Positions 10,318 through 26,828 of a stretch of 64,000 bases of DNA are shown piece by piece. Both the position numbers and the translations under genes were made by a program. How positions within the stretch are numbered: the first letter of the stretch is position 1; each line of letters opens with the position of its first letter. Below the pieces are notes generated by a model. It searched no databases. It had not been told where the DNA came from and was given only the letters and a program-made list of their open reading frames with translations. The stretch is from the IMG/VR virus record IMGVR_UViG_3300042973_000021, positions 98,083 to 162,082 of that record; one strand, 5' to 3'. The stretch is from a virus. Lineage: Duplodnaviria; Caudoviricetes.

Positions 10318-10321
10318 GAGA

Positions 10322-11689
10322 ATGTTGAAACCCTATAAGGAATATAGATATTTCGGGTTACCTTGGTTAGAAGAAGTTCCTAGCCACTGGGCTATACTGC
10401 GTAATAAAAATGTGCTAATTGAAAAGAAAGAAGTTGTAGGTAGTTCAGCAAATAATTATTTACTTCTTTCCTTAACTCTTAATGGCGTTATAGCACGTGA
10501 TATGATAAATGCAAAAGGTAAATTTCCAAAAGACTTTAATACCTATAAAGTAGTAGAACCAGGCAATCTTATCTTTTGTTTATTCGATATTGATGAAACA
10601 CCAAGAACCGTCGGTTTATCACCCTTAAATGGAATGATAACCGGAGCGTATGATGTTTTTCAACCCGTTAATATCAATGGTAAATATTTATATTATTATT
10701 ACCTTTCAATTGATAACGTCAAAGGGCTGAAGCCTTTATATACAGGATTGCGAAAAGTCATAAACATACAGACATTTTTAGGAACAAAACTACCTGTTCC
10801 TCCTAAGGAAGAGCAGGACCAAATTGTGCGTTTTCTCGATTGGAAGCTTTCAAAAATTAATAAACTAATTCGAGCAAAGAAAAAGCAGATTGCATTATTA
10901 AACGAACAGAAGCAGGTTATTATCAATAACGCTGTCACAAAAGGCGTTGATCCTAATGTACCAATGAAAGATAGTGGGATTGAATGGATTAATCAAATTC
11001 CGGGGCATTGGAGTGTTCTTTATTTATCACAAACAGCAACTGAACAAAAAATATCAAATAAAGATTTTAACAACCAAAACCTACTGTCTTTAAGTTATGG
11101 AAAAATTATAAATAAAGATATTAATAAAACGGATGGCTTGCTTCCAACCTCTTTCGAGACATACCAGGTTGTCCATGATGGGAATATCATTCTAAGATTA
11201 ACAGATTTGCAAAATGACCACAAAAGTTTACGAGTAGGCCTAGCAACTCAAACTGGTATAATTACTTCTGCATATACATGCTTGCTACCTAGAGAAAGTA
11301 TTTCCCCTGAATTTTTGTATTTATTATTGCATTCATACGATGTATGCAAAGTATTTTATGGTATGGGTGGAGGTGTTCGTCAGAGCATAAGTTATAAAGA
11401 TATACGTAAGTTATTTATACCTGTTCCGCCCTTAGAAGAACAGATACAAATAGCAGAGTTTTGTAAAAACCGAAGCAAGTTTATTGAGAACTTTATTGTT
11501 AATATAGAAAAAGAAATACTGTTACTGACCGAATATCGCACTCGCCTTATTTCTGATGTGGTAACGGGAAAAGTCGATGTACTTGATATCGAAATACCTA
11601 AATATGAAGCCGACTCTGATGATTTTAACGATAACGAAATTGATAATCTCGTCTTTGATGAAGAGGACGGTGAAACGGAGGTGGAATAA
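10322..11689 (+). CDS. hsdS: Type I R-M specificity subunit
   Basis: Two TRDs with PVPP.EEQ repeats, AVTKG/VVTGK conserved regions. Confidence 0.9.
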   Translation: MLKPYKEYRYFGLPWLEEVPSHWAILRNKNVLIEKKEVVGSSANNYLLLSLTLNGVIARDMINAKGKFPKDFNTYKVVEPGNLIFCLFDIDETPRTVGLSPLNGMITGAYDVFQPVNINGKYLYYYYLSIDNVKGLKPLYTGLRKVINIQTFLGTKLPVPPKEEQDQIVRFLDWKLSKINKLIRAKKKQIALLNEQKQVIINNAVTKGVDPNVPMKDSGIEWINQIPGHWSVLYLSQTATEQKISNKDFNNQNLLSLSYGKIINKDINKTDGLLPTSFETYQVVHDGNIILRLTDLQNDHKSLRVGLATQTGIITSAYTCLLPRESISPEFLYLLLHSYDVCKVFYGMGGGVRQSISYKDIRKLFIPVPPLEEQIQIAEFCKNRSKFIENFIVNIEKEILLLTEYRTRLISDVVTGKVDVLDIEIPKYEADSDDFNDNEIDNLVFDEEDGETEVE

Positions 11690-11690
11690 C

Positions 11691-12152
11691 ATGAGCGACG
11701 ATTTTCATATGGAAATATCTATACCAGCAGATAACGATGGATATATACTTTTGCAATGCCCCAACTGTGGTACTTTCTTCAAAGCTACTCCTTCTGATAT
11801 TGAGGACGATGGCGTATTTGAACTTTTTTGTCCAAGTTGTGGCCTTGTAGGAGAAGACTATATTACAGAGGATGTATTAGAGTTGGCTATGGCAATGGCG
11901 CAAAACAAGGCGATGGACATGATCCACGAAGAATTTAAAAAAATGGAGCGTCAATTTAGGAAAGGACCTGTTACTTTTAAGGCTGGAAAACGTCCCAAGC
12001 ATGAGCCTGAAAATCCAATTCGTTCTGGCATTGAAGCTCTAGAAATCGTATCATTTCCGTGTTGCAAGCGCACTGCCAAAGTAAAGCCTATTCTAAGTAT
12101 GACCGGGTGCTACTGCCCGTTTTGTGGGGTGAAAAATTATGAAGTTGAATAG
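11691..12152 (+). CDS. Zn-ribbon protein (CPNC, CPSC, CC, CPFC) inserted in the hsd operon
   Basis: GGAGGTGG RBS, ATG at 11691, multiple CxxC motifs. Confidence 0.7.
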   Translation: MSDDFHMEISIPADNDGYILLQCPNCGTFFKATPSDIEDDGVFELFCPSCGLVGEDYITEDVLELAMAMAQNKAMDMIHEEFKKMERQFRKGPVTFKAGKRPKHEPENPIRSGIEALEIVSFPCCKRTAKVKPILSMTGCYCPFCGVKNYEVE

Positions 12153-12924
12153 AGCAGACTTAAGAAAAATCATGTATGATTTCAACAGTATTTCTAGTCG
12201 TCTTCTACAAGCTGATTTCAACGACTATACAAATGTGCTATCAAAATTTATTGCATTTATTAAAAATACACCTATTATTATTGATTACATTATAGCTTGT
12301 GGAGTTTGTGATCAAGACTTGAAACAAGAGTTTGACGAAGTTAGTCGTTCTTACGGAAGATGTATTTTTTCTCTTGGAGATACAGATGAAGAAGAGATTC
12401 GAAATGTCTTTGCAATCTTAAACTATATTGCTGAAAATAACATCGAAATACATCTAGGCGTTGCCTTTGGATATTCGTCTTCAAAAAAATATCAAGACAA
12501 AATCAAAGGATTCAACGACCGAGTTGTTATGGTATTAATTCACCATATAGAAAGATACTTAACCAAGATAGGAATTGATATGGGAGTTGATGAAAAAATT
12601 ATTTATTCAATTACAGTACAAAATGGACAAGTCAATATTGCCAACGACAATGCTTCCATTTCAGCAACCAATACAGTGGGCATTGATACTACCCAACTTG
12701 AAAAGTTGATACAAGCAGTGAGAAAAACTGCTGATGGTTTATCAAACGAAGATGCTGAAATTTTGAATAGCAATTTAGAAGTTATAGAAGAAGAAGTAAA
12801 ATCTGAAAACCCTAGAAAAGGTTTTATAAAAACTGCAGTTTCCGGATTGAAAATGCTAAAAGGAACCGCTGAGTTTGCTGCGGCAATTACGGCGCTAATT
12901 CAATTTATTAATCCATTGTTATAA
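12139..12924 (+). CDS. Uncharacterised 261-aa protein inserted in the hsd operon
   Basis: Long ORF overlapping the upstream gene; no recognised family. Confidence 0.7.
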   Translation: MKLNRADLRKIMYDFNSISSRLLQADFNDYTNVLSKFIAFIKNTPIIIDYIIACGVCDQDLKQEFDEVSRSYGRCIFSLGDTDEEEIRNVFAILNYIAENNIEIHLGVAFGYSSSKKYQDKIKGFNDRVVMVLIHHIERYLTKIGIDMGVDEKIIYSITVQNGQVNIANDNASISATNTVGIDTTQLEKLIQAVRKTADGLSNEDAEILNSNLEVIEEEVKSENPRKGFIKTAVSGLKMLKGTAEFAAAITALIQFINPLL

Positions 12925-15279
12925 CAAGAACGGAGGTGGAATAAATGACTGCTACTAATACACGAGAAAGTGGTCTGGAATCTTTGATTGTAGATTGGCT
13001 TGTAAATCAAAACGGTTATGAGCAAGGAAGCAATGCTGACTATAACCGAGACTATGCTATTGATGAAACACGTCTATTCCGTTTTCTTTCAGCGACGCAG
13101 CCGGATGAAATGGAAAAGCTCGGTGTATTTAAAAGCGACTTAAAAAAGTCTCAGTTTCTAAACCGACTGCGTGGTGAAATAGCAAAACGCGGAATTATTG
13201 ATGTACTTCGTAATGGAATTAAGGTTTATCCTGCCGACCTGGTTATGTTTTATCTAACACCAAGTGAGAAGAACATAAAAGCAAAAGCGCTATTTGAGCA
13301 AAATATTTTCAGCGTTACACGACAACTCCAATATTCAAAGGATGCGACTCGTCTTGCCCTTGATCTGTGCATTTTTATCAATGGCTTGCCGGTTATAACA
13401 TGCGAGCTTAAAAATCAACTTACAAAGCAGAATGTTGATGATGCAGTATATCAATATAAAACCGATCGTGATCCAAAGGAACTGCTTTTCCAGTTTAAAC
13501 GCTGCATGGTTCATTTTGCAGTAGATGATGCAAGAGTCAAGTTCTGTACTAAGCTTGATGGCAAAGCTTCCTGGTTCTTGCCATTTGACAAAGGGTACAA
13601 TGATGGAGCCGGCAACCCTCCAAATTCTTCTGGTATAATGACAGATTATTTATGGAAGGATATCCTTGAAAAGTATATGCTTGCACATATAATCGAAAAT
13701 TACGCTCAAGTTGTTGAAAAAGTAGACCAGGAAACAAAAAAGAAAACATATACACAAATTTTCCCACGTTACCATCAACTGTCTGCTGTTGAAAGTCTCC
13801 TCGCAGATGTACGCCACAATGGTGTTGGCCAGAGATACCTAATACAACACAGTGCCGGTAGTGGAAAATCAAATTCTATTGCATGGCTGGCTCATCAACT
13901 CGTAGGACTCGAAAAGAATGGCAAAGCCATCATTGACTCTGTGGTAATTGTTACAGACCGTGTAATACTTGATAAACAAATTCGGGATACGATAAAACAG
14001 TTTATGCAGGTTTCTAGCACAGTAGCATGGGCAGAACACTCTGATGATTTAAGGAAAGCAATCAATGGCGGTAAGAAGATTATAATAACTACTGTACATA
14101 AGTTCCCTATTATTCTTGATAGTATTGGCTCAGAACACAAAGGGCGCTCTTTCGCCATAATTATTGACGAGGCCCATTCATCACAAAGCGGTAACATGTC
14201 GGCTAAGATGAATATTGTATTATCAGGTGAAGTTACTGGAGAAGAGGAAGATTTTGAAGATAAAATCAACCGTCTTATGGAAGGGCGCAAAATGCTGAAG
14301 AACGCCAGCTATTTTGCATTTACCGCTACTCCTAAAAACAAAACCCTTGAAATGTTTGGTATCCCATACCAAGACGGAGATGAAATTAAACATCGTCCGT
14401 TCCATGTATATACAATGAAGCAAGCCATTCAAGAAGGTTTTATTTTAGATGTACTTAAATACTATACCCCTGTAGACAGTTATTACAGGCTTGCTAAAAC
14501 CATTGAAGATGATCCTTTATTTGACAAGAAAAAAGCACAAAAGAAACTCCGTCAATTTGTAGAAAGTAATAAGTTTGCCATATCACAAAAAGCAGAAATC
14601 ATGGTGAATCACTTTCATGATCAGGTTATTTCAAAAGGGAAAATCGGAGGAAAAGCACGAGCTATGGTGGTTACGAGTAGTATAGAGCGCTGTATCGAAT
14701 ACTATTACGCAATTAATAAATGCCTTGCTGACAGGCGTAGTCCTTATAAAGCTATTATTGCTTTTTCCGGGGAAAAAGAATATGGTGGTAAAACTTTAAC
14801 CTCTGCAGCAATTAATGGCTTCCCAGATAATACAATTGAGAAGGTGTTCCGTAAGGATCCATATCGATTTCTTATAGTGGCTGATATGTTCCAAACGGGT
14901 TATGATGAACCACTACTCCATACAATGTACGTTGATAAAATGCTATCTGATATAAAGGCTGTTCAGACTCTATCTCGGCTGAACCGCTCTCATCCGCAGA
15001 AACATGATACTTTTGTACTTGATTTTGCAAATAAAACAGAGACCATTGAAGCAGCATTCTCAAAATATTATCGGACAACTATTCTGTCTAATGAAACTGA
15101 TCCGAACAAGCTTTATGATCTCATAGCAATTATGGAAGCCCATCAAGTATACGAAAATGGGCATGTTGATTCGCTTGTTGAACTTTACTTAAATGGTGCA
15201 GATCGCGATAGGTTAGATCCTATCCTCGATGCATGTACTGCTATTTACAAAGAGCTTGATGACGAAGGGAAAATTGAAT

Positions 15280-16496
15280 CGTAAATTGCAAGTTCAAATT
15301 GAACAGTAGCAGTTACGAAGCTGATTGAACCTTGTCAACTGAATATACCTGATCGAGAAACTTCTCGAATAGCTCCTCTGGAGTGCAGTAGCCTAGCGCC
15401 TTTCGGGGCAATGCGTTGATCTCATCTGCAAAGCTGCAGATTTGTTCCGCACTGTATCGCTCTATCGAGGCACCCTTGGGAATAAATCTGCGAAGAATGC
15501 GATTGTGCCGTTCATTCTGTGGCCTTTCCCAGGACGAATATGGATGGGCAAAATATACATATATACCATATTTTTCCATCTCACAAAGTCTGGCAAACTC
15601 ATTGCCATTGTCGGCTGTAATGGATTGGAAGATCTCCGTGAAGTGCTCCTGGTATTCTTCACGCAACACTTCCAGAGCCGTCATGACAGAGTCAGCGTCC
15701 TTTCCCGGGATTTTGATGGCCATATAGTAATCAGTCTTCTTCTCAAGCAGAGTAAGGACAACCGATTCTTTGCCGCTTTTATGGCCTACTACCGTATCAA
15801 TCTCCCAGTGACCACAGTGAATCCGTTCCATCACTTCCTCAGGGCGTTCTTCGATGCTTTTGCCCAGGATATGCTTGTTCTGGCGGACTCTGTGATTTTT
15901 GTGGGACTTTCTGGACAGTGCTTCCGGAACATCTGCAGGGTGAATCTCGAGATTTCCTGCCCAGAGCTCATTGTACAAAGTTTTTGTGCATGGAATCTGT
16001 TCTGCTGGAAACAGCTGCTCCCGTTTGGCATAACCCACACAGGCATCAAGAGACCACTTGTGATGTTTGATCTTTCCATACATCCATTCCAGGAAGGGCT
16101 GGGCACCCGCAATCTTGTGTGCCTTGTGACAACGGGATCGATTGATCTCATAGTTCTGCTGGCCACGTCTGGCGGAGTATTGTGGAAATCTTCCTCTGCT
16201 GCCCCTGCGTTCGCCTGTACCACGCCGAAGTTCGTACATCACAGTGGATGGAGAGCAGTCGATCTGCTGAGCAATCTTGCGGAGAGAGTAACCAAGCTTT
16301 TTGAAGATCCTGATACTGCATCTTTCTTCAAATCTCAGGTGCTGACCCCTTTCGCGATCGGGTGTAATCATGGTAGAATTAAGTTGATCCATAGTGGACT
16401 CCTTTCGGTGAATTTTTGTTTCGCGACTTTATTCTACCAGAAATCCACTATGGATTTTACTCTATTCAGCTGTTCAAGTTCATTTTACAATCTACC
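15280..16496 (-). mobile_element. IS30-family element with a 14-bp flanking direct repeat
   Basis: Imperfect 27-bp IRs (15280-15306, 16470-16496); AGGGAAAATTGAAT at 15266-15279 and 16497-16510. Confidence 0.9.
15313..16392 (-). CDS. IS30-family transposase
   Basis: N-terminal HTH, GHWEIDTV, TADNGNEF, PYSSWERPQNE motifs. Confidence 0.93.
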   Translation of the reverse strand: MDQLNSTMITPDRERGQHLRFEERCSIRIFKKLGYSLRKIAQQIDCSPSTVMYELRRGTGERRGSRGRFPQYSARRGQQNYEINRSRCHKAHKIAGAQPFLEWMYGKIKHHKWSLDACVGYAKREQLFPAEQIPCTKTLYNELWAGNLEIHPADVPEALSRKSHKNHRVRQNKHILGKSIEERPEEVMERIHCGHWEIDTVVGHKSGKESVVLTLLEKKTDYYMAIKIPGKDADSVMTALEVLREEYQEHFTEIFQSITADNGNEFARLCEMEKYGIYVYFAHPYSSWERPQNERHNRILRRFIPKGASIERYSAEQICSFADEINALPRKALGYCTPEELFEKFLDQVYSVDKVQSAS

Positions 16497-17856
16497 AGGG
16501 AAAATTGAATTCAAAAGTGCAGCAAAAGCATTTGTTCGAACATACGGCTTTCTTGGAGCTATTCTTCCTTACGGTAATGCAGAATGGGAAAAGCTATCAA
16601 TATTTTTAAATTTATTAATACCTAAACTTCCTTCTCCCAAAGAAGATGATTTGTCTCAAGGAATACTAGATTCAATTGATTTAGATAGTTACCGAGTCGA
16701 AGCTCGTGATTCTATGTCTCTTGTATTAGATGATGCTGACGCTGAGATTGGCCCTGTACCTGCTGGTCGTGTAGGCGGCATAGTGGAGCCAGAAATGGAT
16801 TTGCTTTCTAGCATTCTTTCATCATTTAATGACTTGTTCGGCAATATAGACTGGAACGATGCTGATAATGTTCGCCGCCAAATTCTAGAAATACCAGGAA
16901 TGGTTACAAAAGACGAGCGCTATATTAACGCAATGAAAAATTCAGACAAGCAAAATGCGCGTATGGAAAGTGAACGTGCCCTTCAGTCTGTTATATTTAG
17001 TATAATGGCGGATAATATGGAGTTATTTAAGCAGTTTAATGATAATCCTTCGTTTAAGAAATGGCTGTCGGATCTTGTTTTCAATTTAACGTATAACCCT
17101 GAAGGAAAGCCATTTGAAACTCCTTCCAATGATTCAAATAACAAATAAGCTGTTACGGAGGGAGGTAAAGGATTATGGCTAAACGAGGAAAAAGTATAAA
17201 TCTGTTTTTGATGGATGGCACACCAAATGGGAGAATAAAGTGTACTTTGGCTAATTGGACTGGCGTTGCTTACAAGATACCTCGCACTGAACTAGATAAA
17301 TGCAAAGGACGCGAAGATTTATCCCAGAGCGGCGTTTACTTTTTATTTGGCACTTCAGATCAAACAGATGACAATATGGTATATATTGGGCAAGCCGGTG
17401 TTCGGAAAAACGGAGAGGGTCTTCTTTGTCGGTTAATAGAACACAAGCGAAATCCAGATAAGGATTATTGGACAGAAGCTGTTGTAATTACTACGTCCAA
17501 TAACTCCTTTGGTCCCACAGAGATAAGTTATCTTGAGAATCGTTTTTGTGGGCTTGCAGTAGAGGCAAACCGGTATGTGGTTAAGAACGGAAACGACCCT
17601 ACTCCAGGAAATATAACCGAGGAAAAAGAAAGTGAGCTCGAAGAATTCATTGATTACGCTAAAATTATAATGGGTGCTCTTGGGCATAAATTATTCGAAC
17701 CACTGACCGATAAACCTAAACCAGCTAATACAGTGTTAGGGTCGGGCGATATTAACCAATAAGTGTCGGCGATAAATCGCCATTTTGGGTCGGGCTATTT
17801 CGCCAGTCAATTTAAAATCGCCATTGAGATTTCTGTCTATTGTCTTAAACTGATGT

Positions 17857-19200
17857 ATGACCAATGCATCAGCCAAGAAGATGATTATGACAGAGAATTT
17901 CAATGGCTTTAATAAAATCATATCACAAGCGCTGGATGAAATGAAGTCAGCAGGTGGACCGGATTTCGATCTTAACAAGGTCAATCTGGCTGAACTGGAA
18001 CGCAGAACCGGGATAAGCAGGGCTCGGCTTCGGAGATTAAAGGCAAACCAATTCAAAGTTCTGCCTGACAAGCGTTGCGGAAGAAAAGCTCCTGTAACAA
18101 AACTGACTGGATTTACAGATATCATCGATGCGCTTCTTAGAAAGGATGTGACTAATTCCAATGCGATCTATGACCGCCTTGTAGAAAATGGATATCAGGG
18201 CGGGAAGACGATTATCAAGAACTACATACAACAGCATAAGTATCTGATACCGCCGCGCAGACGAATCGTAGACTCTCGCGGAAACCGCGGCAGACGCTAC
18301 ACGACGGCTCCGGGAGAATGTTACCAGATGGACTGGGGTTTCGTAACGGTCGAGGATCAGTCAGGGAATTCTTACCGCATAGCATGCTTTGCCATGATAT
18401 GCCACTGCTGTGGAAAGCAGTACATCGAATTCTTCCCGAATGCACGCCAGGAAAACCTGTTTATCGGAATGATCCACGGATTCATGTACCTGGGTGTCCC
18501 TGGGTATGTTCTGACCGATAATATGAAAAGCGTCGTCATCCGGCGTGACCTCGCCGGCAGACCGATCTGGCAGAAGGACTACGAGCTATTCATGAAGAAT
18601 CTGGACTTTTCTACCCGCTTATGCAAACCAAGACACCCTTTTACCAAAGGGTCAGTAGAACGACTGGTCCGATTCGTAAAGGATAATTTCCTCCCGGGAA
18701 GAGATTTCCGGGAGCTCACAGACCTGAATTATGAGGCTGTGCGTTGGTGTGAACGCCAGAATGGAAATTATCACAAAGCGGTGGATTGCGTACCTGACGT
18801 AAAGCATCAGGAAGTCTGCATGATAACTGCACGGGAGCTGGAAGAGTCTGTCAAGCTCAACTACTATCTTTGTCCAGAGCGGAAGATCTCCTTCGATGGC
18901 TTCGTAAACTATGAAGGCCGACGGTTTGGCGTCCCATACTGGTACACAGAAAAGACCTGTCGTGTACGGCGTGATGGCTATGTTCTTCAGATATTTGATT
19001 CCAGCTTAACACGACTCCTCTGTGAACATGATGTATCATGGAGCAGAACAGATAGTTTCTGCAAAGATCAGTACTGTGAAAGCCAGCCGGAAGAGAAGCC
19101 AACCATGCCGGTCCGTACGCGGATCCACCAGTTAGATCCACCAGAATATGGTTCCGGTTTCGATCGATTCAATTTCGGAGAGGTGGGCAGCGATGAGTGA
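17857..19200 (+). CDS. istA: IS21 transposase
   Basis: QMDWG, TDNMK, TKGSVER DDE motifs. Confidence 0.92.
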   Translation: MTNASAKKMIMTENFNGFNKIISQALDEMKSAGGPDFDLNKVNLAELERRTGISRARLRRLKANQFKVLPDKRCGRKAPVTKLTGFTDIIDALLRKDVTNSNAIYDRLVENGYQGGKTIIKNYIQQHKYLIPPRRRIVDSRGNRGRRYTTAPGECYQMDWGFVTVEDQSGNSYRIACFAMICHCCGKQYIEFFPNARQENLFIGMIHGFMYLGVPGYVLTDNMKSVVIRRDLAGRPIWQKDYELFMKNLDFSTRLCKPRHPFTKGSVERLVRFVKDNFLPGRDFRELTDLNYEAVRWCERQNGNYHKAVDCVPDVKHQEVCMITARELEESVKLNYYLCPERKISFDGFVNYEGRRFGVPYWYTEKTCRVRRDGYVLQIFDSSLTRLLCEHDVSWSRTDSFCKDQYCESQPEEKPTMPVRTRIHQLDPPEYGSGFDRFNFGEVGSDE

Positions 19201-19996
19201 TTCCATTTACGAGCAGATCGGCAGAGACGCTTTTTATCTGAAACTGGATCTCAGCGCAGAACACATCGCTAAACTGTCGATGAACGAAAGCTGGTCGGAT
19301 GAGCATCTCCAGGCGGTCGCAGATATTTTCACCTATATGCGGGAGCAGAAAGAGCAGAAAACGATTTCGACGCTTCTGAGACTCAGCAGACTGCCACTGA
19401 AAGAGCCGAAGACATTTGAAAACTTTGATTTCAGCCAGATCCGCGGAAAAGATATGACTGCACTGCAGGAACTCCCAACACTTGCGGCGCTGTATGGTCA
19501 TCGTAATCTGGCATTTATTGGGCCACAGGGAGTTGGAAAGACCCACCTCGCAATGGCTTTCGGAAGGGCCTGCTGTGAAAAGGGATACAAGACCTATTTC
19601 CTGAAAGCCACAGAACTGAATCAGAAACTGTTGGATGCCAGAAAGTATGGCCGGGAAAAGTCCACGATCAACGGATTAGTGAAACCATCATGCCTGATTA
19701 TCGATGAGATCGGCAGATGCGTGTTCGACAAGGTCAATACCCGGATGTTCTTTGATATTATCGACCGGAGATACAACAAAGAAGGCCCTAACACGCTGAT
19801 CCTGACGAGCAATCTAATGCCCGGGAAATGGGGAGAGTTCTTCAGTGAGGATTCATCACTCCTGTGTTCTTTGGACAGGATATTCGACATAGCGACTGTA
19901 TTCACGATCAAGGGACAGACATACCGTGGAAAACAGTGTAATACAATAACTCTGGCTGCGGGACGACCGAGCGCGCTACCTAAGCAGGACATTTAA
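19193..19996 (+). CDS. istB: IS21 helper ATPase
   Basis: GPQGVGKTHLA, LIIDEIG, LDRI. Confidence 0.92.
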   Translation: MSDSIYEQIGRDAFYLKLDLSAEHIAKLSMNESWSDEHLQAVADIFTYMREQKEQKTISTLLRLSRLPLKEPKTFENFDFSQIRGKDMTALQELPTLAALYGHRNLAFIGPQGVGKTHLAMAFGRACCEKGYKTYFLKATELNQKLLDARKYGREKSTINGLVKPSCLIIDEIGRCVFDKVNTRMFFDIIDRRYNKEGPNTLILTSNLMPGKWGEFFSEDSSLLCSLDRIFDIATVFTIKGQTYRGKQCNTITLAAGRPSALPKQDI

Positions 19997-20636
19997 AGAA
20001 AGGAAAAGGCTGATGCATTGGTCGAAATGGATTGACCCAAAATGGCGATTTTAATCCGGCTATCTGTGGCGTTTATCGCCCGACGCTAACAACAGTAGAA
20101 TCTGCTGAAGAGGAATTACTTCTCTTTATGAAGCGAAAAAGTCGTAAGAGCGGACAAGTAATTGAAGCAAGCTGTAAGCAAACGAACGAAGGTTTTGTCG
20201 TCTTACAGGGCAGTCATATTGAAACGATAGATTCTGAAAGTATTCCGCCTGGAATTAAAGACCGTAGACAAAAAGCCAAAATAGATGAAAATGGCATACT
20301 TCAAGAAAACATCTTATTTCGTAGCCCATCATATGCTGCTGCTTTTGTCATTGGCGGGCACGTAAATGGACTGGTAGAATGGAAAACGAAAGACGGGGTA
20401 TCATTGAAAGAAATAGAAAACAGTGAAGAAAATTAAGCATAATTTACATCCATCCTGTCTCCTCAACCCTGTTAATATATCTAACCTATCAACTCAACCC
20501 TATCACTTTTAGGGCAGTTGATATGTTCCCGTGAACAATAAAAATAAGGGTTTCCCGACATTGGCATCTCCGGCAAAGTAGCCGCAAGAAAAACTCAATG
20601 TCTGGAAACCCTTTATTTATGGGCACTTTCAGCTAT

Positions 20637-20678
20637 CTATTTCTCAACTCTTGACATCAATACCACGCACTCAACATG
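20637..20678 (-). other. att junction carrying an rlmD/rumA 3'-end copy (HVECVVLMSRVEK*)
   Basis: Hand translation of the minus strand; matches the conserved C-terminal HVE(T/C)V.L motif of TrmA/RlmD methyltransferases. Confidence 0.8.
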
Positions 20679-20784
20679 TGAAAGTTAGGCTATTTCACAC
20701 ATTTGCAGATTTCCCTTTATTTACAAGGGTTTTCTGGCTGTTTGAGTGTATCGTACATCCATATCGCCGTCTCAGATGAGTAGG

Positions 20785-21711
20785 CTATTTTTGCTTTTTG
20801 GAGCTGTATTTCGTGCTCTTCCTCTTCCTTTCACCAGATTCGGTAATAACAATATTGCTTCGTTTCGCTCGTGCTTCTTGAGCAGCTCGGAATACGTCCT
20901 CTGTAATGATCGGCGGATGGCAGTCCTTCATCTCAAACATCTGACCCTCCGTCACAGAGTCTGCCAGCCGCACTGTTCCTATATATTTCTCGTTTGATAG
21001 CAGGGTATCTACTGACCTCTTGCTCCACCGTTCCTTCCCCGTAGGGGAGGGAATCTTTTGTTCAGCCAGTTTCTTTGTAATCCCCAATATGCTTGCTCCG
21101 TCAATGTACCAACGGAATATATCACGTACCACTTGTGCCTGTGTCGGCTCTACCACGAGATTTCCATCATCGTCCTTCACATAACCATACAGGCGCTTTC
21201 GGTAATTGCCGGAACTGCCGTTCAAAGCGCGGTTCCTGAGTCCCATGCGGATATTCATGCTTCTAGTCTCATTTTCAGCCTGCGCAAATGACTCAGCAAC
21301 AGAAATGAGCAGATCATCATCAACTACATCCGTATCAAGACCATCCTCATCAAATATGACACGTACCCCAGCGGCTTTTAGTCTTCGAAGCGCCTCAAGC
21401 GTATCAACGGTATCTCTTCCAAACCGGCTGATGCTTTTTGTAAGGATAACCGATATATGATGCGCCTCAGCCTCTCGGATCATCCGCTCAAATTCTCGGC
21501 GCGATGCCTCTCCCCTTGCGGTATCAATATCTATAAACGTATCAGTCAGTTTCCATTGCTCGACATTGGCCACCGCTCTTGTTAGAGCTGCTATTTGTGC
21601 GGCAAGGCTATTTAGTTGGTTCTTTTCACCGGTACTAACCCTGCAGTAGATGCCAACATTCATACCCGGATCAGTTCTTTTGGCAGGTATATACCACACC
21701 TTTTGGCTCAC
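20785..21711 (-). CDS. Serine recombinase (catalytic + recombinase domain, no zinc ribbon)
   Basis: YCRVST, KSISRFGR, LYGY, NEKYIG, HPPII; GTG start after AAAGGAGG. Confidence 0.9.
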   Translation of the reverse strand: MSQKVWYIPAKRTDPGMNVGIYCRVSTGEKNQLNSLAAQIAALTRAVANVEQWKLTDTFIDIDTARGEASRREFERMIREAEAHHISVILTKSISRFGRDTVDTLEALRRLKAAGVRVIFDEDGLDTDVVDDDLLISVAESFAQAENETRSMNIRMGLRNRALNGSSGNYRKRLYGYVKDDDGNLVVEPTQAQVVRDIFRWYIDGASILGITKKLAEQKIPSPTGKERWSKRSVDTLLSNEKYIGTVRLADSVTEGQMFEMKDCHPPIITEDVFRAAQEARAKRSNIVITESGERKRKSTKYSSKKQK

Positions 21712-21803
21712 TGTACCGCCTCCTTTCACCTCATTTTAGCCTAATTATATCGAATAATTCTACCAATGTACAGTAGTCTATTATTGGCCTTTTCCGTCTC
21801 AAA

Positions 21804-21850
21804 ACACAAGATATAGGAGCCGAGTCGCCATTCATGCACTACATATTGTA
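21804..21850. promoter_or_regulatory. Pair of NrdR-box-like sites, 32 bp apart (also 23004-23050)
   Basis: ACACAAGATATAGGA and GCACTACATATTGTA versus consensus acaCwAtATaTwGtg. Confidence 0.55.
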
Positions 21851-21877
21851 TGACATCAACGCTACCGTCTCAACGTG
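21839..21877 (-). other. att junction with rlmD 3'-end copy (HVETVALMSYNM*)
   Basis: Hand translation; identical copy at 23039-23077. Confidence 0.8.
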
Positions 21878-23077
21878 TGAAAGTTAGGCTATTTCACACA
21901 TTTTGTAGAATTTCCTTTATTTACAAGGGTTTTCTGGCTGTTTGAGTGTATCGTACATCCATATCCCCGTCTCAGATGAGTAGGCTATTTTTGCTTTTTG
22001 GAGCTGTATTTCGTGCTCTTCCTCTTCCTTTCACCAGATTCGGTAATAACAATATTGCTTCGTTTCACTCGTGCTTCTTGAGCGGCTCGGAATACGTCCT
22101 CTGTAATGATCGGCGGATGGCAGTCCTTCATCTCAAACATCTGACCCTCCGTCACAGAGTCTGCCAGGCGCACAGTTCCTATGTATTTCTCGTTTGATAG
22201 CAGGGTGTCTACTGACCTCTTGCTCCACCGTTCCTTCCCCGTAGGGGAGGGAATCTTTTGTTCAGCCAGTTTCTTTGTAATACCCAATATGCTTGCTCCG
22301 TCAATGTACCAACGGAATATATCACGTACCACTTGTGCCTGTGTCGGCTCTATGACAAGGTTCCCATCATCGTCCTTCACATAACCATACAGGCGCTTTC
22401 GGTAATTGCCGGAACTGCCGTTCAAAGCGCGGTTCCTGAGTCCCATGCGGATGTTCATGCTTCTGGTCTCATTTTCAGCCTGCGCAAATGACTCAGCAAC
22501 AGAAATGAGCAGATCATCATCAACTACATCCGTATCAAGACCATCCTCATCAAATATGACACGTACCCCAGCGGCTTTTAGTCTTCGAAGCGCCTCAAGC
22601 GTATCAACGGTATCTCTTCCAAACCGGCTGATGCTTTTTGTAAGGATAACCGATATATGATGCGCCTCAGCCTCTCGGATCATCCGCTCAAATTCTCGGC
22701 GCGATGCCTCTCCCCTTGCGGTATCAATATCTATAAACGTATCAGTCAGTTTCCATTGCTCGACATTGGCCACCGCTCTTGTTAGAGCTGCTATTTGTGC
22801 GGCAAGGCTATTTAGTTGGTTCTTTTCACCGGTACTAACCCTGCAGTAGATGCCAACATTCATACCCGGATCAGTTCTTTTGGCAGGTATATACCACACC
22901 TTTTGGCTCACTGTACCGCCTCCTTTCACCTCATTTTAGCCTAATTATATCGAATAATTCTACCAATGTACAGTAGTCTATTATTGGCCTTTTCCGTCTC
23001 AAAACACAAGATATAGGAGCCGAGTCGCCATTCATGCACTACATATTGTATGACATCAACGCTACCGTCTCAACGTG
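21878..23077 (-). mobile_element. 1.2-kb recombinase-only integrative element, copy 2
   Basis: Direct repeat of copy 1; similarity ends exactly at the His codon of the rlmD motif. Confidence 0.75.
21985..22911 (-). CDS. Serine recombinase, second copy (2 aa differences from copy 1)
   Basis: Same motifs as copy 1. Confidence 0.9.
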   Translation of the reverse strand: MSQKVWYIPAKRTDPGMNVGIYCRVSTGEKNQLNSLAAQIAALTRAVANVEQWKLTDTFIDIDTARGEASRREFERMIREAEAHHISVILTKSISRFGRDTVDTLEALRRLKAAGVRVIFDEDGLDTDVVDDDLLISVAESFAQAENETRSMNIRMGLRNRALNGSSGNYRKRLYGYVKDDDGNLVIEPTQAQVVRDIFRWYIDGASILGITKKLAEQKIPSPTGKERWSKRSVDTLLSNEKYIGTVRLADSVTEGQMFEMKDCHPPIITEDVFRAAQEARVKRSNIVITESGERKRKSTKYSSKKQK

Positions 23078-23296
23078 CCTAAGAGTCGTACTATTAATCT
23101 CCCAACTGTGAGCATGTAATTATTTACATAAATTCAAAACGCAGGAAAAGTTCATAGGAATCATCCGGCAAATCCCTATATATAAACACTATAATACAGT
23201 GTTCACTATAAATGCAATAAAAATATAATATGCGAAATATTACGCAAAAATAGCCGCGGTCCAGTATTCGGACTGCGGCTGTTTTTTGCTCACTTG

Positions 23297-24871
23297 CTAA
23301 GCTTCGACTTCTACCCTAAGGCCTGATTTGAATTCGACTATGACCTTCTCCTGGCAGATTATTACCCTTCCTACCAGGCGCGTTACCAGAAGGTCTGAGT
23401 ATTCGCTTACGGCCTCGGTCTGGTTTCCAAGGAAACGGGCCAGGTCATCCGTGCGCTTTTTGGTTTCGGTGTCTTTTGACCTGTTCATAAGAACAGACAT
23501 CCTCTGGCTCTGCAGTTTTCTGATTTTATTTCCTATCTTTTCAATCTTCTCTTCATCGGACCCGGCTGCAAGAAGTTTTTCCTGCTGCTTTTTAAGCTCC
23601 GCATCGATCTCCTCAAGTCCCAGGCCGCTCTCCTCCTCAAGAACGGACCGGACATTATCCTGAAGCTGCGGGATAACAGAATTCCTGTCTGCCCAGGCAT
23701 CGTTTACTGCGGTGACAATGGCGGCATGAAGTTCCTCCTCGCTTATAGTCCGGGCCTGGCACTTCCTCCCGGTCTGCTTCATGCTAAGCCGGGTCACGCA
23801 TCTCCAGACAATGGAGATCTTCCCGTTGCGGCGGTACCACTTGACCCTCCGGTAGATATCTCCGCAAAGTCCGCAAAATACGATCCCTGAAAGAGCATAC
23901 TTGCTGGAAAAGCATCTCTTTCTTCCGTTTGAGGACATATTGGCTCGCCTCTCCATCTCGGCCTGGACCCGCATGTAAGTATCCCGGTCGATGATCGGCG
24001 GCTGGCTGTTTTTCACATAATACTGGGGAGCAGACCCGTCATTTCGCTTTCTTGTCTTGTCGAGGACACTCACCGTAACAGTCTTCTGCAGTAGAGCATC
24101 ACCGATGTACTTCTCGTTTTTCAGGATCTGCTTGACATTCGTAGGCCACCACTTGGTGCTGCCGGACCCGTTTTTGATGCCGTCTCTTGCAAGGCCTTCT
24201 GCTATTTTTCCGTAGCTGTTTCCGTCCAGGTAGTCTCTGAAGATCCGCCTTACCGTCCTGGCCTGCTCTTCATTGATGACAAGTTTTCCGTCAGGTCCTT
24301 TGTCGTAGCCTAAGAACCTGGTGTAGTTTACCCTCACCTGTCCCTGCTGGTTACGAAACTGTATTCCCATCTTTACGTTTGCCGACAGGGATTCAGATTC
24401 CTGCTGGGCAAGGGATGCCATAATGGTAAGCAGGACCTCACCCTTGGCATCGAGGGTATTGATGTTTTCTTTCTCGAAGTAGACGGCAATGTTTAAGTTC
24501 TTTAGCTCCCTTGTGTATTTCAGGCAGTCGACCGTGTTTCTTGAAAACCGGCTTATAGACTTGGTTATGATCATATCGATCTTGCCAGCCTTGCAGTCCT
24601 CGATCATATTGTTAAAGGCAGTCCGCTTTGCCGTGCTGGTGCCTGAAATTCCATCGTCGGCAAAGATCCCCGCAAGTTCCCAGGCAGGATTTGCCTTGAT
24701 GTAGTCAGTGTAATGCTTCACCTGCGTCTCATAGCTTGACTCCTGTTCTTCATAGTCTGTCGATACCCGGCAGTAAGCAGCGACCCTGGTCTTATGAATG
24801 CCACTGCCTTCTGTCCGGGTTCCTGTTACCTTGCTCGCCGGGATGACGGTTACATTGTTTGCTACATCCAT
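23297..24871 (-). CDS. Large serine recombinase
   Basis: [17 protein letters not shown], zinc ribbon CGLCG. Confidence 0.92.
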
Positions 24872-25293
24872 TACTTGATCACCTTCTCTTTCACAAGTCC
24901 GTACATGTACTCAGCCTGCTTTCTAGGATCAGCATGAAACTTCCGCGGCGAGAGGAGTACGAACTCTGTCTCAGGCTTTGGCGGTACTCTTTTTCTGCGT
25001 CCCCGCTTTGCGATACCATGCACGCAGTATCTTCTCTGAATTTCCTCCTCGCAGGCTGTTATTTCCTCCTCGGTAAGAATCTGCGGATAAAAGTCATCGC
25101 CCAGGTATTTCCTGTTGGTGATGAGCTTTTTCACCCAGGCGTGGCTATGCGAAAGGCCCTCCGCGGAAGCCGCCGAGGCAAGGCTCATCCCGCCAAGATA
25201 ATTCTTTATAATCCGGTGAATGGTTTCGGCCTCCTCTTCAACGATTAGGGCCTTTCCGTTCTCAATTCTGTAGCCGTATGGTGTATGTTTCAT
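24871..25293 (-). CDS. Small recombinase-domain protein of the integrase triplet
   Basis: TPYGY...[13 protein letters not shown]. Confidence 0.85.
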
Positions 25294-26828
25294 CGAATCA
25301 CCTCCTTAAAAGTCGGTCCGCATTTCAGGACAAATTCGATTTCCGTTTTGCTGCGGACGATTATCTTCTCCACAAAGTCTGTAAACAGATCTCCGTCAAA
25401 CTCTGTGAGCATCCGGCCCTTTCCGGTATAGCGCATCAGTTTCTCAAGCTCCTCTTCCCTGTCCAAAGAGCTCTCATCTTTTGCAGAAAGAAGCTTCTTT
25501 TCTTCAGAAAGTCTGGCCTTCTCCTTTTCAAGACCGGCACTTTCTCTTTCGTAAGTCTCTGAATCAATTAGTCTCATGGTATAAAAGGAGAGGATCTGCT
25601 TTCTTCTCTCCTCGTTCTTTTTTAGAAGCTCATCGATTCTGGAAAGCTGCTCTCCTCCAGCCGTATGGGACTTATTCCTTACCGAATATCTGTAAGGAAC
25701 CAGGATCACTTCTCTTGCAAAAGTAAGCTTGTTCAGCATAGTTGCAAATGCTGCCTGCAGGGCATCCTCCCTGATGGGCTTCTGGCTGCAGGAGTTTCTG
25801 TTCTCAAGATGCCCGGAGCAGGCATAACACCTTCTGCCTTCTGCCCCGATTCTTTTCCACTTTGACCCGCACTCACCGCATATGACTTTTCCTGACATCG
25901 GATAGCGGTTCTGCGTCTGGTCTGTTCCGTAGAAGTTTCCCTTTTCCGCACCGTTCTTTGACATGACTCTGCATGCGGCATCGAAAACCTCCTGGCTGAT
26001 AATGGCTTCATGATGATCGGCTACCCTGTACTTCTGCCTCTCACCGTTATTTATGTGGCGGTTGTAATTATCATCTGTGTAGGTCTTCTGCAGGATAAGA
26101 GAGCCGGTATAGGTTTCATTTCTTATCACGTCCCGGATTGTGCTGCTTCTCCATCTGCCGCCCCTCTTTGTGGTAATGCCATCTGCATTCAGCTCCTTTG
26201 CGATTTCTGTTGTGGACTTGCCGTTTAAGACCCCGTCAAAGATCCGCTTTACCACCCTGGCCTGATCGGAAACCGGTACCATTTTCCTGCCCGCGTATTT
26301 ATAGCCGTAAGGAGCGGGGCTTAAGTAAGTCCCGTTGGCAAAGCGCTTCTGCAAGGCCCATCTTTCATTTGAGGAGATTGACTTCGACTCGCTCTGGGCA
26401 AGGCTTGAGAGAATGGAGAGCATAAGTTCGCTTTCCATCTTTCCGGTGTCAATGTTCTCCTTCTCGAAATACATGTAGACGCCTTTGCTCTGAAGCTCCC
26501 TTACGATTGCAATGCTGTCCACGGTATTTCTTGAAAACCGACTTATGGACTTTACGATGACATAGTCGATAAGGCCCTTCTCGCAGTCTTTTATCATCTT
26601 AAGTAGTCCTTCTCTCTTTGCCGTCTTTGTCCCGCTGATGCCCTCATCATAGTAGAGCCCGGCAAACTCCCAGTCCGGCCTTGCCTTTATGTAGGCTTCG
26701 TAGTGCCTCTTCTGTGCTTCAAGGCTTATGAGCTGGTCATCCGAACCTGTGGACACTCTGGCATAGGCAGCCACGCGGAGCTTGATCTTTCCGGCCTTTG
26801 CTGCCTCTATCTTTGTTATCTGTGCCAT
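25290..26828 (-). CDS. Large serine recombinase
   Basis: [22 protein letters not shown] zinc ribbon. Confidence 0.92.
   Translation of the reverse strand: MAQITKIEAAKAGKIKLRVAAYARVSTGSDDQLISLEAQKRHYEAYIKARPDWEFAGLYYDEGISGTKTAKREGLLKMIKDCEKGLIDYVIVKSISRFSRNTVDSIAIVRELQSKGVYMYFEKENIDTGKMESELMLSILSSLAQSESKSISSNERWALQKRFANGTYLSPAPYGYKYAGRKMVPVSDQARVVKRIFDGVLNGKSTTEIAKELNADGITTKRGGRWRSSTIRDVIRNETYTGSLILQKTYTDDNYNRHINNGERQKYRVADHHEAIISQEVFDAACRVMSKNGAEKGNFYGTDQTQNRYPMSGKVICGECGSKWKRIGAEGRRCYACSGHLENRNSCSQKPIREDALQAAFATMLNKLTFAREVILVPYRYSVRNKSHTAGGEQLSRIDELLKKNEERRKQILSFYTMRLIDSETYERESAGLEKEKARLSEEKKLLSAKDESSLDREEELEKLMRYTGKGRMLTEFDGDLFTDFVEKIIVRSKTEIEFVLKCGPTFKEVIR

Follow-up and report, generated by a model that had tools for sequence, protein, structure and literature searches.

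Streptococcal ICEs and IMEs that target rumA/rlmD, such as ICE_Spy2096_rumA and IME_SpnAP200_rumA, carry a single large serine integrase (PMC4701971, PMC5704250). These integrases have 450-640 aa with a zinc ribbon, and the elements span 5-60 kb with transfer, replication or phage modules. The two tandem units described here lie at positions 20679-23077 of a window, which is the whole 64,000-nucleotide stretch of a Caudoviricetes record that was analyzed. They share with the rumA/rlmD ICEs and IMEs the target gene and the serine-recombinase chemistry; both kinds of element are bounded by short direct repeats, swap the 3' end of rlmD, and accrete in tandem. In contrast, a unit of only 1.2 kb encodes an enzyme of 308 aa that has neither zinc ribbon nor coiled coil, and it has a conserved end motif of its own. 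The prophage next to the units and Streptococcus Javan105 are of the rumA/rlmD large-integrase kind. The ORF of the Javan105 large serine recombinase (LSR) ends inside tail-like sequence.

SCC elements of staphylococci, with their Ccr recombinases, insert at the 3' end of rlmH (orfX) and form tandem and composite SCC (PMC11470126). Like the units, they combine serine recombinases with the last codons of an rRNA methyltransferase gene, a regenerated site, and tandem arrays, and their arrays likewise mix recombinase-bearing and recombinase-less units. However, CcrA, CcrB, and CcrC are full-length LSRs, and the units differ from SCC in size scale, in the gene targeted (rlmD and not rlmH), and in phylogenetic range. 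On the short recombinase, the NCBIfam Ccr models reach 50-78 bits, far below their cut-offs of 700-900. In Tn4451/Tn4453 (TnpX) and Tn5397 (TndX), one serine recombinase both excises and integrates without a directionality factor, via a circle and with a 2-bp crossover (PMC5704250). TnpX and TndX are 500-700 aa long with C-terminal DNA-binding regions, their elements measure at least 6 kb, and their target choice is looser than that of the units.

The smallest serine-recombinase mobile elements are those of the IS607 family, which have neither terminal inverted repeats nor target duplications. IS607 TnpA places its DNA-binding domain N-terminally and its catalytic domain C-terminally and uses nearly random targets, whereas the short recombinase has a catalytic and then a recombinase domain and one precise target; the IS607 model gives it 42.8 bits against a cut-off of 110. 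Integrons resemble the units in relying on a single recombinase and a fixed site at which small units, often of one gene each, are stacked, but they depend on a tyrosine recombinase, a folded single-stranded attC, and an integrase outside the cassette, and here a serine recombinase lies within each unit. Small serine recombinases of the resolvase/invertase type have ~180-200 aa, with a catalytic domain and a C-terminal helix-turn-helix. The 308-aa protein, with a recombinase domain in place of the helix-turn-helix, is not a member of that group. EF_B0058, a 'small serine recombinase' defence marker (2026 PLoS Biology, PMC13552941), was considered as a relative and rejected as a Gin-like enzyme of another family.

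Organization of the tandem units

A first-pass annotation of this DNA had described two tandem units of 1199 and 1200 bp, which repeat search and alignment bear out for the sequence as assembled. The features of the units are as follows.

20679..21877, minus strand: unit 1, candidate cargo-less element, 1199 bp (repeat search, alignment)
20679..20695, minus strand: right-end motif AAATAGCCTAACTTTCA (P-left arm) of unit 1, abutting the crossover CA of the His codon (comparison of element ends)
20748..20790, minus strand: decayed att-junction copy overlapping the recombinase stop, AAATAG CCTAC..CTGAGACGG..GGATGTACGATAC (local alignment against shuffles)
20785..21711, minus strand: short serine recombinase copy 1, 308 aa, GTG start, catalytic Ser26 in YCRVST (ORF, domains, homologs, model)
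21719..21772, minus strand: RBS AAAGGAGG (21719-21726) and promoter-like TGTACA-17-TATAAT (21744-21772) of copy 1 (consensus matches only)
21839..21877, minus strand: element-borne replacement rlmD tail of unit 1, HVETVALMSYNM-stop, forming with 21878-21894 the attP-type junction J2 (repeat and translation)
21878..23077, minus strand: unit 2, candidate cargo-less element, 1200 bp, with recombinase copy 2 at 21985-22911, tail at 23039-23077, and P-left motif at 21878-21894 (repeat search, alignment, domain search)

The repeat spacing is 1200 bp in the repeat search; Tandem Repeats Finder, with a period limit of 500, leaves the units undetected. The copies are 98.4% identical overall. Their 19 differing positions (18 substitutions and one indel) all fall inside 20702-21265, and the 612-bp blocks 21266-21877 and 22466-23077 are identical. 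A 27-bp repeat, TGACATCAA..CTCAACRTG, starts at 20652, 21851, and 23051, and two identical copies of this length have a chance expectation of 0 in 100 shuffles. Its reverse complement is coding sequence of the RlmD C-terminus, and the tail copies at 21839-21877 and 23039-23077 are the element's own rlmD tail. In each unit the recombinase ORF runs on the minus strand from a GTG start with the same RBS ahead of it, and the promoter-like sequence of copy 2 is a consensus match at 22972-22944.

The proposed anatomy of att halves, an rlmD 3' end, a promoter and RBS, and one 308-aa recombinase without zinc ribbon or coiled coil was thus confirmed, the last by domain search. The recombinase is the sole ORF of the 1.2-kb unit with family or database support. 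The unit contains neither a rep gene nor the relaxase expected of an IME, and has no space for either. The annotation was right about these two genes and wrong in denying inverted repeats, as a short imperfect one (ATGTGTGAAA / TTTCACACGT) spans the unit junction. Dyad symmetry between the arms of the element junction was also sought, and none was convincing. The 106 bp past the recombinase stop codon hold the decayed att-junction copy, with a local score of 32 against 14.9 +/- 2.7 (maximum 27) for shuffles.

Displaced rlmD tail and adjoining prophage

The units are bounded on one side by an older rlmD end and on the other by a prophage.

20446..20498, minus strand: two GTTGAG-N11-GATGT copies resembling the att right arm (pattern count in window)
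20541..20618, no strand assigned: 23-nt inverted repeat, a terminator-like hairpin past the displaced rlmD tail (87% complementary; aligns with hairpins behind the last tail elsewhere)
20637..20678, minus strand: displaced older rlmD 3' end HVECVVLMSRVEK-stop, right arm of the outermost junction J1 (matches RlmD C-termini of loci with an rlmD body)
23078..26828, minus strand: left end of a siphovirus-type prophage joined to the unit 2 tail, junction J3 (domain search, junction alignment)
23297-24871, minus strand: prophage LSR, 524 aa (domain search)
24871-25293, minus strand: prophage ORF, 140 aa (ORF list)
25290-26828, minus strand: prophage LSR, 512 aa (domain search)

The GTTGAG-N11-GATGT pattern has 5 matches in the window against 0.97 expected, every one at the rlmD-tail locus, and the module of tail, hairpin, GAAACATATCAA, and repeats recurs behind the last tail at other loci. 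Prophage genes occupy 23078-64000, up to the contig end, and the prophage joins at exactly the same CAYGTNGAG boundary as the units. The rlmD body and the far end of the prophage were sought on the contig and are both absent, because the contig ends within the prophage. When viral contigs were scanned with exact patterns of the prophage end and of the element junction, only the window's own record matched.

The short serine recombinase

Serine integrases carry out a unidirectional attP x attB reaction, which is reversed by a directionality factor, and their zinc-ribbon and coiled-coil domain provides much of att recognition and synapsis control. To our knowledge, no characterised large serine recombinase works without this domain. 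The 308-aa protein matches PF00239 (E 7e-27) and PF07508 (E 8e-22) in a domain search, while the PF13408 zinc ribbon is matched by both neighbouring LSRs and not by this protein. It has the catalytic and 'Recombinase' domains of large serine recombinases and lacks their zinc ribbon and coiled coil, and it passes no NCBIfam model. It aligns with the neighbouring 524-aa LSR (35% identity, residues 25-309) as far as LSR residue 326, the point at which that LSR passes into its zinc ribbon.

An AF2 model from 51 sequences (pLDDT 83), which replaced an earlier one from 13 sequences (pLDDT 59), predicts a catalytic domain, helix E, and a recombinase domain (pLDDT 90-97), with nothing beyond the latter but a short hairpin and a basic tail. 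Structurally, the model best matches large serine integrases, namely SPbeta, Bxb1, and the N-terminal plus recombinase domains of PhiC31. A conserved basic C-terminal motif, RSN..G..RK.T.YSSK, lies where the zinc ribbon and coiled coil would normally come. Among homologs, the motifs YCRVST (which contains Ser26) and SRFGRD vary little or not at all.

The best 120 homologs mostly have 305-312 aa at 64-99% identity, and the shorter ones appear partial. Among the best 150 representatives at 50% clustering, 47 have 285-346 aa, most of them with the C-terminal motif, and both length and motif are conserved across sequences just 35-65% identical. The gene is under purifying selection, with a dN/dS of 0.035-0.048; between the two window copies, 12 changes are synonymous and 2 non-synonymous. 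The window recombinase is therefore not a broken gene, as it belongs to a large Bacillota family with conserved length and motif and a dN/dS of ~0.04.

Family, target site, and spread

Short recombinases of this kind occur at 79 loci in genomes of Bacillota. Most of the loci that include the flank have an HVExVxL..stop tail upstream of the recombinase gene, some hundreds of nt away (typically ~165 nt), and a second tail 1.2-2.6 kb downstream of it. The site specificity of the family is evident from direct repeats of 24-28 bp at the His codon of HVE in rlmD, which are present in the window and at many loci. Nearly every unit is closed by AAATAGCCTAA-N-TATCA/CAYGTNGAG (the slash marks the unit boundary) or a close variant, and AAATAGCCTAA is the most conserved non-coding block over 54 distinct element ends. 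The 53/19 split found for this end motif is a lower bound, as the strict regular expression under-counted variants. The motif is missing from the three recombinase-less units examined, whose ends differ from those of the short-recombinase units. The left arms beside the crossover differ greatly among the element, rlmD bodies, and tandem junctions, so that the target would have to be recognised mainly through one arm, an unusual arrangement for an enzyme of this class.

Relatives of 1.5-2.6 kb carry one or two added cargo genes, and the same recombinase module is found with different cargo. By Pfam domain, the cargo is aminoglycoside-nucleotidyltransferase-like, GNAT, glyoxalase-like, or macrolide-glycosyltransferase-like. 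The genome search suggested in the first-pass annotation returned stand-alone 1.2-kb units directly behind rlmD, in addition to tandems of diverged members, and the homologs are thus not confined to the ends of larger elements. At four loci with stand-alone units behind rlmD (L011, L061, L063, and L079), the flanks contain no LSR. Literature searches and the most relevant papers yielded no description of recombinase-only rlmD elements, in line with the suggested undescribed class, and the short-recombinase elements form a widespread and apparently undescribed family.

Elements at least 99% identical occupy the same rlmD codon in unrelated hosts, with similarity stopping at the repeats. L009 and L011 share 1237 bp at 99.2% between unrelated flanks, although their rlmD genes are only ~33% identical. 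A 2.65-kb member recurs at 98.7-99.7% identity in Alkalithermobacter, Paracholeplasma, and three MAGs, and the match extends no further than the tails. L043 and L044 have 2570 bp in common at 99.5%. The loci that share one element up to its repeats are L009 with L011, L043 with L044, and the group of L071, L074, L075, L076, and L092. Such near-identical copies in distant hosts demonstrate recent horizontal spread. In two Ruminococcus species (L079 and L080), the element is ~90% identical, the same as its flanks, so in some lineages it appears simply to have been inherited.

Empty sites, also looked for at the annotation's suggestion, were found in Pectinatus for a 45%-identical family member and not for the window variant: two species (genomes G003 and G008) carry the element, and two others (G005 and G007) have rlmD with its native tail and the homologous downstream flank. 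In the species of L009, an empty site is not cleanly demonstrable, as RlmD C-termini are many and alternative there. The commonest long RlmD form of that species is followed by a tail-bounded, recombinase-less AAA_15/DUF4435 pair, which is PARIS-like by Pfam content.

Tandems of diverged members are present at L001, L015, L040, L048, L069, and L072. Contigs L006-L008, which represent at least three further samples, also have the joined-end junction of the J2 type, a pattern that tandems, circles, and mixed strains all produce. The contigs of 1227-1229 bp were considered as evidence of circles and rejected, as all break at the same repeat, as assembly-graph branching predicts; the 1.2-kb contigs bounded by the 28-bp repeat fit tandems, circles, and mixed strains equally well.

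Proposed integration mechanism

The preferred reading, with a probability of roughly 60%, is that the units belong, as cargo-less members, to a family of very small integrative elements specific for a site in rlmD. The copies in unrelated hosts, empty sites, tandems, and purifying selection support the earlier idea of a site-specific element reduced to a compact recombinase. The family would range from 1.2 to ~2.6 kb, with some larger members, and would insert at a conserved His codon, the CAY of HVE, close to the rlmD 3' end. The element brings a replacement rlmD tail, so the gene would remain intact. The recombinase of 306-308 aa, apparently built like the first two LSR domains (catalytic with helix E, then recombinase), would pair the junction AAATAGCCTAA-N-TATCA/CAYGTNGAGACGGTAG..GATGTC with the rlmD site and exchange strands at the CA dinucleotide. 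Since the junction beside the rlmD body keeps a target-like right arm of ~26 bp after insertion, it would stay usable as a landing site. Extra copies, diverged relatives, and LSR phages would stack there with the newest arrival nearest rlmD, and the probable order in the window is unit 1, unit 2, and then the prophage.

The short enzyme would suffice for this reaction, act in both directions, and form a circle on excision. No large serine recombinase is present in the genomes G003 (draft) and G004 ('chromosome 1, complete sequence'), which have one weak match each (E 8.8e-6 and 6.8e-4) besides the short recombinase. Since both bear the element, its autonomy is favoured. Hitchhiking of the units on the adjacent prophage, raised by the annotation alongside altered excision of that prophage, is plausible, its one line of support being the recurrence of LSR genes followed by a short-recombinase unit in phage records and viral contigs.

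Alternative explanations

That order, LSR genes, tail, and then short recombinase, is seen in Gardnerella phage vB_Gva_AB1, Streptococcus Javan105, and the viral contigs L112 and L115, and an LSR lies within 5 kb at ~14 of the 79 genome loci. Because short-recombinase units so often adjoin LSR elements using the same site, they may instead be helper-dependent satellites, moved or co-excised and packaged by the LSRs of rlmD-site phages and ICEs. The short protein would then be unable to recognise or synapse sites alone and would act as a subunit or modifier. The shared CAYGTNGAG boundary of units and prophage fits such dependence, as does a protein without zinc ribbon and coiled coil. However, the LSR-free host genomes G003 and G004, the four stand-alone units with LSR-free flanks, and an end motif that is specific to short-recombinase units and unlike LSR-type ends make it unlikely. 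Purifying selection is also strong on the short protein as a whole, its catalytic Ser-Arg motif included, which argues for a catalytically active enzyme. Another possibility is that the units are domesticated and retained for renewing the rlmD landing site or modulating prophage integration and excision, and not for spreading. Insertion does preserve an rlmD tail that looks functional, together with a landing site later used by the prophage, and the element appears vertically inherited in the two Ruminococcus species. The recent horizontal spread among distant hosts and the patchy occupancy within Pectinatus render this very improbable.

The tandem could also be an artefact in which one integrated copy and a second variant, from another strain or an excised circle, were threaded together. 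The source record of the contig is viral or metagenomic, and two copies at 98.4% identity that share an unbroken 612-bp block could form the kind of graph cycle that a short-read assembler traverses twice. This is improbable in view of the tandems of clearly different members in independent assemblies that include isolate genomes (L001, L015, L069, and L072), which cannot be cycle artefacts because their members are only 75-85% identical in nucleotides, and of the J2-type junction in the contigs from further samples. The ORFs may alternatively be 5' fragments of LSR genes, left by the deletion of larger elements and later duplicated, as the end of the protein coincides with the start of the zinc ribbon in the neighbouring LSRs and a decayed att copy lies beside the stop codon. 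Conserved length and C-terminal motif at 35-65% identity, a dN/dS of ~0.04, at least 47 clusters (50% identity) with the short form, and identical units in unrelated hosts make such decay scarcely credible, and the family data already contradict it.

Implications

With the preferred reading of a self-moving rlmD element, the units may be the smallest self-contained integrating elements in bacteria. An extended form of this reading is offered tentatively, at less than even odds: the 308-aa protein would be a self-sufficient bidirectional integrase without the zinc-ribbon/coiled-coil module regarded as necessary in its superfamily and, with a site of ~50 bp, would make up the smallest known autonomous integrating element (~1.1-1.2 kb). 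It would drive an integron-like economy at rlmD of Bacillota. Single-gene cargo (drug-modifying-type enzymes and defence genes) would be captured behind the recombinase and become fixed as the inner junction decays, and phages and ICEs with a mimic of the rlmD tail would carry it from cell to cell.

If the short enzyme works alone, integration of the serine-integrase type is feasible with ~300 residues and without a zinc-ribbon/coiled-coil module. This would bear on how serine integrases recognise and pair their sites, and would provide a compact candidate tool. The short recombinase is a possible driver of small-unit traffic at the rlmD hotspot in gut and rumen Firmicutes, although the three recombinase-less units examined do not share its end motif. 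The element family is a vehicle that moves single accessory genes between very distant hosts.

Structure of the tandem

Repeat search and alignment show that window 20679-23077 consists of two units arranged head to tail, 1199 and 1200 bp long and each with one 308-aa ORF, which bears out the tandem of 1.2-kb recombinase-only units proposed in the first-pass annotation.

Features of the window
8599-15284: type I restriction-modification system (HsdM, HsdS, HsdR)
15442-17762: two ORFs, no Pfam match
17857-19996: IS21-family element with IstA-like transposase (rve, Mu-transposase C-terminal domain) and IstB ATPase, ~650 bp past the displaced rlmD tail
20032-20436: small DUF4357/RAMA-like gene in convergent orientation to the rlmD tail
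20440-20678, minus strand: module behind the last rlmD tail, made of a hairpin, GAAACATATCAA and copies of (A/G)GGTTGAG-N11-GATGT
20652, 21851 and 23051: three copies of a 27-bp repeat; minus-strand reading, the conserved RlmD end
20679-21877, minus strand: unit 1 (ORF 20785-21711)
21878-23077, minus strand: unit 2 (ORF 21985-22911)
23078 to contig end: siphovirus-type prophage encoding two large serine recombinases (LSRs), DNA polymerase A, tail, capsid, portal, terminase, VapE-like primase and S24 repressor
24871-25293: 140-aa ORF flanked by the two LSR genes of the prophage, bearing only a faint likeness to a recombinase-domain piece

The outermost 27-bp copy (20652), with a hairpin behind it, reads HVECVVLMSRVEK*; the two inner copies are identical, reading HVETVALMSYNM*. 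The rlmD body is absent from the contig, a viral or metagenomic one of 162 kb, and the left end of the prophage joins the unit 2 tail at a boundary identical to that of the units. From the three tail copies, the composition of a unit is therefore as follows.

Parts of one unit, in order toward rlmD
Replacement rlmD tail
Promoter-like site and strong RBS (consensus-type sequence signals)
308-aa ORF, GTG start
Non-coding DNA, 106 bp
End motif AAATAGCCTAACTTTCA, abutting the next CAYGTNGAG

The 18 substitutions and one indel between the units are confined to the half encoding the C-terminal protein part, and the remaining 612 bp are identical, a mosaic that points to gene conversion or to recombination among variants. 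The near-identical tandem may be an assembly effect, but its joined-end junction (unit 1 tail with unit 2 end motif, 21877/21878) recurs in contigs of three other samples (L006-L008).

The module behind the last tail has 2-3 repeat copies spaced 27-34 bp, each resembling an att right arm that lacks the CAC. The module is present in ~60% of short-recombinase loci, including L009:7035-7310, L042, L059, L066, L058, L037, L015 and L071, and in L071-type elements it is internal, between tail and recombinase gene. It could be what remains of old junctions, mark the left terminus of LSR-type elements, or supply accessory binding sites. The LSR/~138-aa/LSR arrangement of the prophage is also found in L009, L010 and Gardnerella phage vB_Gva_AB1.

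A mobile family at one target

The family survey comprised 79 genome loci, spread over Clostridia, Bacilli, Negativicutes, Acholeplasma-like and other lineages, and the elements are a real and widespread family. The recombinase gene usually follows an HVExVxL..* tail at a distance of a few hundred nt (typically ~165 nt). About half of the loci have a recognisable rlmD gene ending at that tail, with a second tail 1.2-2.6 kb downstream. Same-size units at rlmD, which the first-pass annotation proposed to look for, exist, and so do empty sites, the latter for a related family member. Single units of 1.2 kb lie directly behind rlmD in other loci (L002-L004, L009-L011, L050, L061, L063, L079, L080). 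This member occupies the site in two Pectinatus species; in two others rlmD, with a native tail, runs straight into the downstream flank shared with the occupied genomes.

L009 and L011 share 1237 bp at 99.2% although their rlmD proteins are only about 33% identical; L043 and L044 share 2570 bp at 99.5%, and a 2.65-kb member is 98.7-99.7% identical among Alkalithermobacter, Paracholeplasma and three MAGs. In all three cases the similarity ends at the tails, and junction comparison assigns the crossover to the CA in the His codon. Judged from these alignments, the units are a mobile element with one precise target.

After insertion, the junction beside the rlmD body retains a 24-28 bp target-like right arm and should therefore stay open to further landings. 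Support comes from arrays whose members clearly differ (L001, L015, L040, L048, L069, L072) and from the prophage joined to the unit 2 tail. The newest arrival would sit closest to rlmD, giving the order unit 1, unit 2 and prophage.

End motif and cargo

The most conserved non-coding feature, among 54 distinct element ends, is AAATAGCCTAA-N-TATCA ahead of the crossover. It or a clear variant ends nearly every unit holding the short recombinase, and the three recombinase-less units met (two in L090, one in L096) have different ends resembling LSR-type junctions. In cargo-less units the recombinase stop codon falls within a decayed junction copy, which suggests an ancestral element whose end was its own stop codon; further DNA may be captured behind the gene and would then be fixed through decay of the inner junction.

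In larger members the recombinase is followed by one or two genes on the same strand, and one recombinase module can precede differing cargo (L055/L056, L049/L059). Cargo Pfam domains include AadA-type nucleotidyltransferase, GNAT, glyoxalase/bleomycin-type, EryCIII-like glycosyltransferase, APH-like, class I tRNA synthetase, metallophosphoesterase, NUDIX and CAAX protease. Lone cargo genes (L026, L035, L039, L043/L044, L045, L047, L067) have Pfam domains that are typical of enzymes for antibiotic modification or self-resistance: AadA_C nucleotidyltransferase, a weak APH match, an additional class I tRNA synthetase, EryCIII-like glycosyltransferase, GNAT and glyoxalase/bleomycin-type.

Upstream of the tandem in L001, a block (L001:132-2616) with two guanylate/adenylate-cyclase-domain genes and a DUF6037 gene closes with the short-recombinase end motif GAATAGCCTAACTATCA|CACGTTGAG, and may be a larger cargo-bearing member whose contig stops short of any recombinase. 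In the L009 species, RlmD proteins with 97-99% identical bodies have at least seven different C-termini, the commonest form carrying a ~100-aa extension. Behind this extended RlmD come an AAA_15/AAA_21 and DUF4435 pair, which is PARIS-like in its domains, and then an orphan tail HVETCVLLEKTSATHEV*; together they make up a tail-bounded 2.8-kb island without a recombinase (L096:8339-11210; also L097, L098).

The short recombinase

The domain search found a resolvase catalytic domain and a 'Recombinase' domain in the short recombinase and did not detect a zinc ribbon; both prophage recombinases have all three. The structure model (51 family members, pLDDT 83) has the catalytic fold, long helix E, recombinase domain and a short terminal hairpin, and most closely matches the SPbeta, Bxb1 and PhiC31 integrases across their first two domains. 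The earlier description of a ~308-aa recombinase lacking the zinc ribbon thus holds. Alignment with the adjacent 524-aa LSR (35% identity) ends opposite LSR residue 326, one residue ahead of its zinc ribbon. The possibility that the protein is an LSR fragment was rejected because the best 120 homologs (64-99% identity) are mostly 305-312 aa, the shorter ones looking partial; 47 of the best 150 representatives of 50%-identity clusters are 285-346 aa; the tail RSN..G..RK.T.YSSK is retained down to 35-45% identity; and dN/dS is 0.035-0.048, window pair included (2 non-synonymous versus 12 synonymous changes). No NCBIfam model accepts the protein. Some cluster representatives (P0249, P0250, P0255, P0260 and others) are 1066-1346 aa with two matching stretches at 30-36% identity, some beginning near residue 570-660, and may be fusions or mis-called genes.

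On sequence evidence, the enzyme probably acts autonomously (roughly 60%), and a helper-dependent satellite is the unlikely alternative. No studied superfamily member is known to work without the C-terminal module missing here. Dependence on a helper would also agree with the highly diverse left arms at the crossover, with LSR elements often adjoining the units (~14 of 79 genome loci, also viral contigs), and with the window's gene order being shared by Gardnerella phage vB_Gva_AB1 and Streptococcus Javan105. Against it and for autonomy, the enzyme and end motif co-travel, the catalytic residues are kept by selection, and neither the Pectinatus draft genome nor the Butyrivibrio record ('chromosome 1, complete sequence') contains an LSR, each having one weak match besides the short recombinase. 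No cell-to-cell transfer machinery is visible in the short-recombinase elements, and spread between cells would go by the obvious route of riding phages or ICEs that use the rlmD site.

In Streptococcus phage Javan105 (L099:1-1914), a 637-aa LSR ORF stops within rlmD-tail-like sequence (..VECVVLM*), a feature described in the literature for single serine integrases that target rumA. Directly behind it lies a short-recombinase element of 2.1 kb whose cargo is a 206-aa membrane protein.

Relation to known elements

The rlmD/rumA 3' end is a landing site for single-large-serine-integrase elements, with exchange of the gene 3' end and tandem accretion (PMC4701971; PMC5704250). The closest functional analogue of the short-recombinase elements is SCC at rlmH; in Tn4451-type elements a serine recombinase alone performs both reactions, and IS607, the smallest serine-recombinase element, differs in build. 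A 'small serine recombinase' defence marker from 2026 was rejected as the same family, being a Gin-like protein. Full-text literature searches turned up no description of a two-domain enzyme of 306-308 aa or of a recombinase-only element as small as 1.2 kb. The site and the accretion principle are already known; the stripped-down enzyme and the minimal element size appear to be new.
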